The notes under the pieces were generated by a model that worked only from the letters and a program-made list of their open reading frames with translations, was not told where the DNA came from and did not search any database. This document shows, piece by piece, positions 43,390 to 46,250 of a stretch of 64,000 nt of DNA; position 1 is the first letter of the stretch, and every line of letters starts with the position of its first letter. The position numbers and the translations under genes were made by a program. The DNA comes from Dictyostelium discoideum (Eukaryota), in contig CM000151.3 of assembly GCA_000004695.1 (NCBI GenBank), positions 1,152,001 through 1,216,000 on the forward strand, given 5' to 3'.

Positions 43390-43800
43390 TAAATATAATA
43401 AAGTTTTTGTAAAAAAAAATTTTTAATTATTATTATTTATTTTTTTAAAAATTATTTAATTTTATTTATCATGGTTAATTTGCTTTAACTCTTATGCTTT
43501 AATTTCTTTTGTTAATTTTGAAGCCCACGGACACCAGAAGTAACTATTGAATCATTTATTTATTTTATTTTTAAAAAAAAATATGTTAAATTGTATTTTT
43601 TAATTTTCAAATTTTTATTTAATTGAATACATACCCTGGGAGGAAAGCTATTATTTATTGTTTTATAAATAATAAAAATAGTCATAATAAAAATAATAAT
43701 AATAATAATAATTATAATAATAATAATAATTATAATAATAATAATAATAATAATAATAATAATAATAATAATAATAGTGGAATTCATTCCCCATCTATTT
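43390..43800 (+). repeat. Dispersed repeat copy 1 (about 350 bp unique part, then an (AAT)n/(ATT)n tail of about 100 bp)
   Basis: This copy shares about 85-90 % identity with 45850..46250. Shared blocks include catggNtaatttNaNtttaactctNatgNttt, ttaattttgaagNccaNggacaccagaagNaactattgaat and tacataccctgggaggaaagctattatttattgtttta, followed by the trinucleotide tract. The two copies lie in the same orientation. Confidence 0.8.
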
Positions 43801-44077
43801 AATGATATTCACCCAAGATTAATTTTTTTTTTTTTAATTAATTATTAAAAAATTAATTTCATTGGCCCCACAAACCAAGATTTCATTTTTTTTTGAAATT
43901 ACATTTTATTAAGCTATAATTAAAATTTCAAACATAATTTATATTTTTTTTTTTTTTTTTTTTTTTTATTCTTCATAAAACAAACTACATTCTTATTAAT
44001 TTACTATACAAATTAATTTCAAATTTAAAAATATGAAATTATTATATTTTATAGTGTTTTTATTAATTGCTTTAAAA

Positions 44078-44157
44078 CTTTGTTTTTCAGAGTATTGCGG
44101 GGAGACTTATCGCAATACTCTGCCCAACAAAGTTTTAAAGCAATTATTAGAAAATAG
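44078..44157. repeat. Near-perfect 80-bp palindrome (inverted repeat with stems of about 34 nt around an 11-nt loop)
   Basis: ttgctttaaaactttgtttttcagagtattgcg-gggagacttat-cgcaatactctgcccaacaaagttttaaagcaatt. The left arm is the reverse complement of the right arm apart from a 3-nt bulge. Confidence 0.85.
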
Positions 44158-44199
44158 AAATTGTTATTCATTTATAGGTTGTAGAAATTAAACATGTTT

Positions 44200-44640
44200 A
44201 TATGAAACAATAGATTTGGAAGATGAAGTTGATTGTACAGTCATGTATCGACTGTTTTGATAGATATGGTGTTAAAAATACTCCAAATGATTCATTATGC
44301 ACCATGTGATATGTTTCTATGTGATACTCAAATTGGTTGTGTTGCTATACCAAAAGCAAATTGTCCAGAACCAAACCAATGTTAAATTCCATTAGTCTGT
44401 AATAGAGAAACTGATATTTGCGAATACGATGAAATTGATTGTGATGATGATAATGAATGTACCAATGACTATTGTGACCCAATAATAGGAGAATGTGTCC
44501 ACTTTTCCAATGATACCATTTGTTCAACTAAAGCAAGTAACTTCTCTAGTTGTTTCCATAGTGGAATATGTGGTGAGTTTGGCTGTAAATTTATAGAAGA
44601 CAGTTGTTAATGATGGTTGTAATCCTTTTGATTTTAATAA
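44200..44640 (+). pseudogene. Frameshifted fragment of a Cys-rich extracellular (EGF/Cys-knot-like) protein
   Basis: One frame reads CDTQIGCVAIPKANCPEPNQC* and then IPLVCNRETDICEYDEIDCDDDNECTNDYCDPIIGECVHFSNDTICSTKASNFSSCFHSGICGEFGCKFIEDSC*. A neighbouring frame reads MKLIVQSCIDCFDRYGVKNTPNDSLCTM*. The Cx(3-5)C spacing resembles the Cys-rich module of the PA14/Psi-like gene at 10.3 kb. Stops and shifts cannot be removed by canonical introns. Confidence 0.4.
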
Positions 44641-45849
44641 GATTTTGTCAACTTTACAAATATTATTAAAAATTTTAATTTTATCTTGATCAGTATGATT
44701 TGAAATGAATGGTTCACTTTTTCTTGATAAAACTATTAATAAATTATCTATTGGTATTGTTGGATTTTTCCAAATTAATCTTACAACTCCAAATTTAATT
44801 CATTTATTTTTGATTTAAAATTTTTTATTCCTTTTTTTTATTATTTTTTTATACATTTTTTTTTTTTTTTTTTTTTTTTCACATTTCAACATTAGCGAAA
44901 AGTAATTCTATGAGGCGCTGGTGGGTTCAATTGAAAAATTTATAACTAAATAAGCTTATTCTAAAGTGAAAACAATAAACAAATATTTTAAAATAAATAA
45001 AATAACAAAATGATTTAAAATTACAAAATAAATAAAATGAAAAAACGATTTTTTATATTCATCTTTATAAACACTTAGTTTATTATTTATTTTCGTCATT
45101 TTAATCATTTTTGTTTTATTATTTATTTTCATCATTTTATAAAAATTATTAGATTAATGGTAAAAAATCAAATGTTATCCAAATTGATTCATCGTTCTTT
45201 GTTAAATTATCACCATCATCAGTTCTACATAATGGAGGTATAATGGACAGGTGGATGAATGGAACAAAAAGTACGGGTATACCCGAACCACTAACAGAAT
45301 CAACGGCGGCACAATTAGTTTCCAACTTTTTGTTTTAGTTTACATCATGGAACCATAACATAACGCATACCAAACTCTGGTTACGTTCTAAATTTAAATG
45401 AACATTCATGAAAATTCTTCTTTTTTTCTTTTGAATCTTTATCTTTTTTACTATTATTATTATTAATTATTATTATTATTTTTATTATTAATAATATTTC
45501 CAAAATAATATTTTTTTTTAATTTATTTTTGACTGGTTTATTTTTTAGGGAATAAAATAAAGTAGTTGGAGTAAAAAAAAAATTAAAAAATTGAAAAAAA
45601 AAAAAAAAAAAAAAAAATAATTCGTGATGATCATCAAATGGTTCATACAGATATAAAACGCACACTTTTAGTTGAAAATGATGGTAGATTCTTTATTGGT
45701 GATTTTGGAAGAGCAAAATAAAAGTAAAAAAAATTATAGTTTAAATAAAAAATAAAACAATATTATATTGTATAAGGAAAATTTTAAATAAAAATAATAA
45801 TAAAAATAATAAAAATAATAATAGTAATAATATATATATGTTTTTTTTA

Positions 45850-46250
45850 AACCTTTAGTTCAATAAACTTTATTATTAAATATTTTTTAAATTATTCAAT
45901 TTGATTAAACTTAATCATGGGTAATTTAATTTAACTCTAATGGTTTTACTTCTTTAGTTAATTTTGAAGACCATGGACACCAGAAGCAACTATTGAATTA
46001 TATATTTATTTATTTATAAAAATAATAATAATATGTTAATCAAATTGTATTTTTTAATTTTTCAAAATTATATTTAATTAAATACATACCCTGGGAGGAA
46101 AGCTATTATTTATTGTTTTATTATAATAATATTAATAATATTAATTAATAATAATAATAATAATAATAATAATAATAATAATAATAATAATAATAATAAT
46201 AATAATAATAATAATAATAATAATAATAATAATAATAATAATAATAATGC
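45850..46250 (+). repeat. Dispersed repeat copy 2, ending in a (TAA)n/(AAT)n tract of about 120 bp
   Basis: See copy 1 at 43390..43800. The two are colinear, including the upstream block ataaaNttt..attatt..tttttaaaNattattNaatttNatt..atcatgg. Confidence 0.8.

Follow-up and report, generated by a model that had tools for sequence, protein, structure and literature searches.

Two direct copies of an (AAT)n-adjoining module on Dictyostelium discoideum chromosome 2, read as the 3' ends of BP74_N paralogues

The BP74_N gene family of Dictyostelium discoideum includes cmbC/CaM-BP15 (DDB_G0269116), DDB_G0270788, DDB_G0271074, DDB_G0270796 and DDB_G0272094, the last of which is reported to be the most down-regulated gene (27-fold) in an RNA-seq study of M. 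marinum infection (bioRxiv 10.1101/590810). The other described systems that come into question here are the tRNA-targeted retroelements TRE5 and TRE3, complex repeats, and non-processed pseudogene fragments. These are compared below with a module that occurs twice in a 64-kb window of D. discoideum chromosome 2 (the window being the whole stretch of DNA analysed; coordinates are those of the window, in + strand numbering), and that a first-pass annotation had described as an unclassified dispersed repeat with an A/T-rich microsatellite tail. The repeated unit is very probably the 3' module of a BP74_N gene, with copy 2 lying in an intact gene and copy 1 being a fragment of a truncated paralogue, and not a mobile element. 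In gene order, the module comprises the (ATT)n tract of intron 3, a 13-nucleotide (nt) micro-exon, intron 4, the last exon and the 3' flank. A literature search returned nothing specific on BP74 or on intronic AAT repeats in Dictyostelium.

A repeated module and the gene that holds it

The first-pass annotation placed the copies about 2.45 kb apart in direct orientation, each ending in a trinucleotide tract, and both features are borne out at essentially the positions given. Within-window BLAST aligns 43427-43776 (copy 1) with 45870-46231 (copy 2) at 85.3% identity over 367 columns (E 5e-115, AAT tract included), and the core without the microsatellite (43440-43667 versus 45883-46121) at 83.5% over 242 columns (E 8e-68); repeat finding (families D10 and D13) gives a spacing of 2446-2454 bp in direct orientation. 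On the + strand, both copies run into an (AAT)n tract, delimited by Tandem Repeats Finder to 43668-43776 in copy 1 (109 bp; 36.3 units, 88% matches) and 46123-46248 in copy 2 (126 bp; 41.7 units, 95% matches). The similarity also covers sequence of normal complexity, and a low-complexity artefact is therefore ruled out: in a window with a GC content of about 22% throughout, a 13-nt block, CTTTCCTCCCAGG, with 62% GC is identical in the two copies, and a 52-nt coding block with 33% GC is 85% identical. Likewise, the duplicate pair is not an assembly artefact, since an independent assembly of D. discoideum (L005) that matches the window at 99.87% over 20.8 kb carries both copies with equal tract lengths. 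No third copy was found within the window, where the remaining BLAST matches are short and A/T-rich.

Copy 2 is the 3' module of the intact gene DDB_G0272094, in place. This gene occupies 45926-46808 on the minus strand from start to stop codon, an 883-bp span that is also the gene called in L005, and a splice model built from the sequence joins its five exons through canonical GT..AG sites into a 417-nt in-frame coding sequence. Exon 1 (46643-46808) encodes a hydrophobic N-terminus and the start of the BP74_N domain (profile hidden Markov model, E 3e-26), and is followed by exon 2 (46492-46554) and exon 3 (46299-46409), both supported by the same type of profile; exon 3 ends in ...DEACG with the donor G/GTAAGT, and the paralogues show the same exon end. 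Intron 3 (46103-46298; 196 nt, GTAAGT...AATAATAG), placed by the splice model together with paralogue comparison, holds the microsatellite, which reads (AAT)n on the + strand and (ATT)n in the gene sense. Exon 4 (46090-46102) is the micro-exon CTTTCCTCCCAGG, encoding (G)AFLPG, and is separated by intron 4 (45990-46089; 100 nt, GTATGT...TTCAATAG; pairwise alignment and splice model) from exon 5 (45926-45989), which encodes CFWCPWSSKLTKEVKPLELN and the stop codon (family alignment; profile E 2.6e-7). Beyond the stop lies a conserved 3' flank (45870-45925, minus strand), a putative 3' untranslated region (UTR) that BLAST and alignment show to be common to copy 1 and all the paralogues.

The 138-amino-acid (aa) product matches the Pfam family BP74_N (PF23621) at 169.5 bits (cut-off 27; E 2.5e-50), with residues 21-133 covering profile positions 1-112 of 114, and the deduced protein is identical at 138/138 positions to XP_645322.1/Q55A71, the DDB_G0272094 protein of AX4. 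Copy 2 and the "small secreted-protein gene" at 46280-46810, which the first-pass annotation had put forward as a possible associate of the repeat, are one and the same gene, already publicly annotated: the three exons of the supposed neighbour are exons 1-3 of DDB_G0272094.

In 21 aligned family members, the columns of the cysteines C97, C112, C119 and C122 and of the C-terminal motif GAFLPGC(F/Y)(W/Y/F)CPW show either no variation or conservation of at least 90%, and the window protein has them all. Its C-terminus, GAFLPGCFWCPWSSKLTKEVK, the product of exons 4 and 5, is conserved in the Dictyostelium paralogues, in Mucor/Mucorales and in intronless bacterial homologues, and the peptide GAFLPGC is nearly invariant across the family, the intronless bacterial homologues included. 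The hydrophobic N-terminus and the four conserved cysteines suggest that the protein is probably secreted. The distribution of BP74_N is patchy, comprising dictyostelids, Mucorales, myxobacteria, actinomycetes, a cyanobacterium and Pseudomonas; the proteins across this range share 57-72% identity with the amoeba protein, and many of the bacterial ones are labelled 'calmodulin'. No solved relative was found by sequence search of the PDB, and an AlphaFold2 model (predicted local distance difference test score 80.5) found no fold match there. Both horizontal transfer of BP74_N and an uncharacterised fold are plausible.

The minus-strand GTATGT donor and TTCAATAG acceptor reported by the first-pass annotation are present and, by pairwise alignment, conserved in both copies; they are the splice signals of intron 4. 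The accompanying proposal that the tract encodes poly-Ile/Asn does not hold. Past the TTCAATAG acceptor, one frame yields synonymous differences, but the same frame is not open upstream of the GTATGT donor, a conflict that is resolved because a AATAATAG acceptor sits 13 nt upstream of that donor. It follows that CTTTCCTCCCAGG is a micro-exon and that the tract is intronic. Coding use of the tract was considered on both strands and rejected: the poly-Ile frame starts with an ATG in copy 1 alone (MNST(I)n), and TAA codons close it in copy 2; the plus-strand poly-Asn open reading frames (ORFs) stay open in the two copies, but copy 2 has GC in place of the donor GT and there is no fitting acceptor. 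Exact look-ups of the window ORFs gave no match.

Further evidence comes from the paralogue loci that could be reached through proteins, namely L001 (two genes, L001a and L001b), L003, L004 and the chromosome 1 locus L002; DDB_G0270788 and DDB_G0271074 were compared as proteins. All seven Dictyostelium copies that were compared, two in the window and five at these four loci (L001a, L001b, L002, L003 and L004), have the micro-exon without a single difference. Each of the five outside the window is part of a BP74_N gene or, at L002, of a rearranged BP74_N locus. Three of the four full-length paralogues checked (L001a, L001b and L003) have a long (ATT)n tract in intron 3; in L004 the tract is degenerate. 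Judging from this comparison, the "tail" is the ancestral intronic microsatellite of the BP74_N gene family; (AAT)n, a common trinucleotide repeat in Dictyostelium, would have expanded inside the intron before the paralogues separated. The D. purpureum member (L008 1501-2119) has intron 3 at the same position, 84 nt long and without the microsatellite. It has no intron 4, and the micro-exon is fused to the last exon, so that the 13-nt micro-exon would have arisen by intron gain in the D. discoideum group or reflect intron loss in D. purpureum. Finally, the roughly 60 nt that directly follow the stop codon (AATTAAATTACYCATGATTAAATTTAATCAAATTAAATA...; 45870-45925 and 43430-43491) are as well conserved as the exons in the window, L001, L003 and L004, and possibly form a regulatory or termination element of the 3' UTR.

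Copy 1 and its history

Copy 1 is a non-processed, 5'-truncated pseudogene fragment of a BP74_N paralogue and is new to annotation (43338-43776). On the minus strand, it consists of a remnant of the intron-3 microsatellite (the tract at 43668-43776); a micro-exon (43635-43647) identical at 13/13 positions, whose AATAATAG acceptor and GTATGT donor are both intact; an intron 4 (43544-43634; 91 nt) that has been kept and is 93% identical to that of the gene; a last exon (43492-43543) encoding YFWCPWASKLTKEIKA and a stop codon, in which the near-invariant Cys119 has become Tyr (tblastn; profile E 4.4e-6); and a 3' flank (43338-43491) homologous to those of the paralogues, with BLAST matches to L001, L003 and L004 reaching 43338-43376. 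The spliced module encodes AFLPGYFWCPWASKLTKEIKA followed by a stop, a 21-aa peptide that matches BP74_N positions 93-112 of 114 (E 1.1e-5) at 25.7 bits, under the cut-off of 27. Only 65 nt of coding sequence survive, and, the domain being incomplete, copy 1 is a fragment of a family member and not a member gene. Its introns and flank are homologous to those of the paralogues and its coding capacity is incomplete, as in a non-processed duplicated pseudogene. A processed (retro-)pseudogene is ruled out, as copy 1 still has intron 4 and the 3' portion of intron 3; since it keeps an intron, it is a DNA-level duplicate and not a retrocopy.

Copy 1 is also the most divergent of the seven modules, with 76-80% identity to all the others, and it has kept higher identity to the gene in intron 4 (93%) than in the coding block of the last exon (85%). 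No gene is called at copy 1 in the annotated assembly L005. At roughly 80-85% identity, copies 1 and 2 are old paralogues and do not mark the two ends of a recent event mediated by repeats. The first-pass annotation had seen the interval between them as a duplication or recombination product containing pseudogene debris, and this is broadly right, the interval being a mosaic that includes a CTDC pseudogene; it is the role of the copies as ends of a recent event that falls away. Its suggestion of an origin in the 3' part of a small gene family was also sound, with copy 2 being exons 4-5 of a BP74_N gene and copy 1 the module of a truncated paralogue.

The homology of copy 1 to every paralogue locus ends at 43763-43776 (BLAST). 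Next to it lies an orphan 160-bp spacer (43777-43937), a putative deletion junction in the place expected for exons 1-3 and the promoter of copy 1, which has no match in the paralogue loci and in which a six-frame profile search found no BP74_N exon remnant. Exons 1-3 for copy 1 were not found anywhere else in the window by tblastn or by a six-frame family profile search, and the sequence upstream of the copy 1 tract shows no similarity to the 5' part of intron 3 that is common to the full-length paralogues. Beyond the spacer, divergent to copy 1, is a Dicty_CTDC pseudogene on the + strand (43938-44617; ATG at 44033, stops and a palindrome), 82.7% identical to the CTDC gene of L002 and 86% to that of L004; its segment 44386-44607 matches Pfam Dicty_CTDC with E 3e-7. 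Each BP74_N copy in the window is divergently paired with a CTDC piece, and the same divergent arrangement of CTDC and BP74_N is seen in L004. The most likely history is a segmental duplication of at least two CTDC/BP74_N units, which would have been followed in one unit by a deletion of about 1.5 kb with its breakpoint at the microsatellite.

It is possible, if not very likely, that the 3' module was all that was ever copied, by a partial duplication starting from the microsatellite, e.g., through template switching or ectopic recombination in the AAT tract. Such an event would account for the homology stopping exactly at the tract, and one junction of an independent rearrangement on chromosome 1 likewise falls at the edge of this intron-3 tract; however, copy 1 stands divergent to a CTDC pseudogene whose own 5' end is preserved, as in the L004 pair and in the pair of the intact gene, and this fits an internal deletion. 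Partial duplication and later truncation differ in history only, not in the identity of the sequence.

Several points weigh against reading the module as a BP74_N 3' end with copy 1 as a truncated remnant. The exon 3-4-5 splicing is predicted from conservation and from identity with the public annotation; the CTDC pseudogene next to copy 1 is the sole ground for supposing that this copy was once full length at the site; with so many CTDC genes, the CTDC/BP74_N pairing could be coincidental; and copy 1, with both splice sites and an open 21-codon frame, may retain some residual use.

This last point leads to a stronger claim, that copy 1 is alive, either as alternative 3'-terminal exons of DDB_G0272094 (across a 2.65-kb intron) or of another transcript, or through a 75-aa ORF, MNST(I)n..., at 43560-43787 on the minus strand, as a small membrane-protein gene. 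The intact AATAATAG acceptor, GTATGT donor and TTCAATAG acceptor, the perfectly identical micro-exon and the presence of the 75-aa ORF in the ORF list all speak for it. Yet it is very improbable, given that conservation is lower in the last exon than in the intron and the near-invariant Cys119 has been lost, that the annotated L005 has no call at this site, that the poly-Ile frame of copy 2 is closed by stops with no ORF of at least 40 aa spanning its tract, and that DDB_G0272094, which is taken here to be expressed, already ends in a terminal exon and a conserved 3' flank of its own before copy 1 is reached. An intron of 2.65 kb would also be out of keeping with the typically short introns of Dictyostelium.

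A non-autonomous dispersed element of about 350 bp with an (AAT)n tail (SINE- or TRE-like, or other), inserted twice, would explain two direct copies that each abut a trinucleotide tract and a homology end that coincides with the tract, but it can be dismissed almost entirely: copy 2 forms an integral part of an annotated gene and is in frame with it; the tract lies inside intron 3 of full-length paralogues, 5' of the module in the gene sense and not at an element terminus; all other copies found, at the loci reached through proteins, are in a BP74_N gene or the rearranged chromosome 1 BP74_N locus; ARAGORN finds no tRNA gene in the 64 kb, which leaves the proposed TRE-like association with tRNA genes without a target in the window; the module has no Rfam hit and no reverse-transcriptase or transposase signal; and homologous coding sequence is present in bacteria and fungi. 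At the edges, where target-site duplications would be sought, copy 2 is continuous with its gene and shows no element boundary, and copy 1 has one edge within the microsatellite and an ill-defined, A/T-rich 3' edge (43338-43427). One candidate for a new repeat family thus falls away, and the significance of the result lies mainly in annotation. Of interest to specialists are the perfectly conserved 13-nt micro-exon and the two rearrangement junctions that touch the same intronic microsatellite.

The chromosome 1 locus and the surrounding block

The second of these junctions is found in L002 (DDB_G0270796), where 9571-10502 forms a paralogous segment on chromosome 1 that was compared with window 45870-46980; L002 is 90-96% identical to window 45039-46980. 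It was considered as a sister-species orthologue and rejected, the window itself being D. discoideum (NUDIX gene 100%, L005 99.87%) and L002 a paralogous segment of chromosome 1. In L002, BP74_N exons 1-3 are inverted relative to exons 4-5, so that this copy of the module adjoins the inverted exons of its own gene. One junction, at the edge of the intron-3 tract, joins the equivalents of window positions ~46145 and ~46977, and a second lies inside exon 3 (~46319). The acceptor of the micro-exon is mutated (AATAATTG), and the annotated product of DDB_G0270796 is truncated to 111 aa. Two rearrangements that touch one microsatellite suggest repeat-associated breakage, but with two cases only (copy 1 and L002), it is rather doubtful that the intron-3 (AAT)n microsatellite is a recurrent breakpoint for structural change; if this were general, long intronic trinucleotide repeats would drive gene fragmentation and inversion in the repeat-rich Dictyostelium genome. 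A (TAT)n tract in inverted orientation also lies in the window, some 40 bp away from the position equivalent to the other end of the L002 inverted segment. Upstream of DDB_G0272094, at 47084-47265, there is a 91-bp tandem duplication of two units that are 90% identical and each end in a long poly-A, adjoined by a perfect (TAT)15 tract (47014-47059).

Both copies of the module belong to a D. discoideum-specific block of 6.3 kb (42790-49133), a mosaic of duplicated parts of genes that also holds CTDC, kinase and OGFOD2-like fragments. In its place, D. citrinum (L006) has about 10 bp and D. firmibasis (L007) 365 bp, with the NUDIX gene and a 714-aa gene (window 49188-51332) as neighbours in these two species. 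A TTTGAAAAT(T)AT-like string stands at both edges of the block and occurs singly in D. citrinum, and could reflect a target duplication or microhomology. A second CTDC-like piece lies at 47318-47648, and an OGFOD2-like fragment at 48061-48911. BLAST found no further collinear DNA homology between the intervals 43800-45850 and 45851-50500.

The palindrome at 44033-44160 falls in the signal-peptide end of the Dicty_CTDC pseudogene and looks like an inverted duplication of the exon start. Its arms are perfectly complementary in L005 at 44085-44087, where that assembly has GGG and the window TTT, and the only Rfam match, a sub-threshold one to a miRNA hairpin, is on this palindrome. A weak kinase-like fragment, HTDIK...DFG, is seen on the + strand at 45587-45718 (Pfam E 0.15). 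Together with the unannotated stretch 45039-45381, it is 90-95% conserved with L002 8599-9400, and this conservation on chromosome 1 implies that the kinase-like debris was already present when the chromosome 1/chromosome 2 duplication happened.

On the near side of the block, the adjacent NUDIX gene (41466-42641) is a single ORF of 391 aa in AX4, 100% identical to DDB_G0272048, versus a 465-aa multi-exon call in L005 (13730-15343). On the far side, a homologue search with the 714-aa ORF was dominated by low-complexity candidates.

Comparison with known systems

With respect to DDB_G0272094 (XP_645322.1, Q55A71), there is no difference to report, as this is the very gene to which copy 2 belongs. 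The proteins of the BP74_N paralogues cmbC/CaM-BP15, DDB_G0270788, DDB_G0271074 and DDB_G0270796 are 83-87% identical to that of the window gene, and L001, which holds DDB_G0269116 and a neighbouring 134-aa paralogue, repeats its exon structure, micro-exon, intron-3 (ATT)n tract and 3' flank. Copy 1 differs from these paralogues in having no exons 1-3 and in the change of Cys119 to Tyr. It resembles other non-processed pseudogene fragments in keeping intron 4 and part of intron 3, in having no start codon or promoter, and in showing no evident coding constraint, but it is very short. The likeness to the TRE5 and TRE3 retroelements and to complex repeats is only superficial and consists in a repeat that adjoins an A-rich tract; unlike those tRNA-targeted elements, the module has no nearby tRNA gene and no element ORF, its tract is intronic and lies 5' in the gene sense, and all of its copies are parts of genes.

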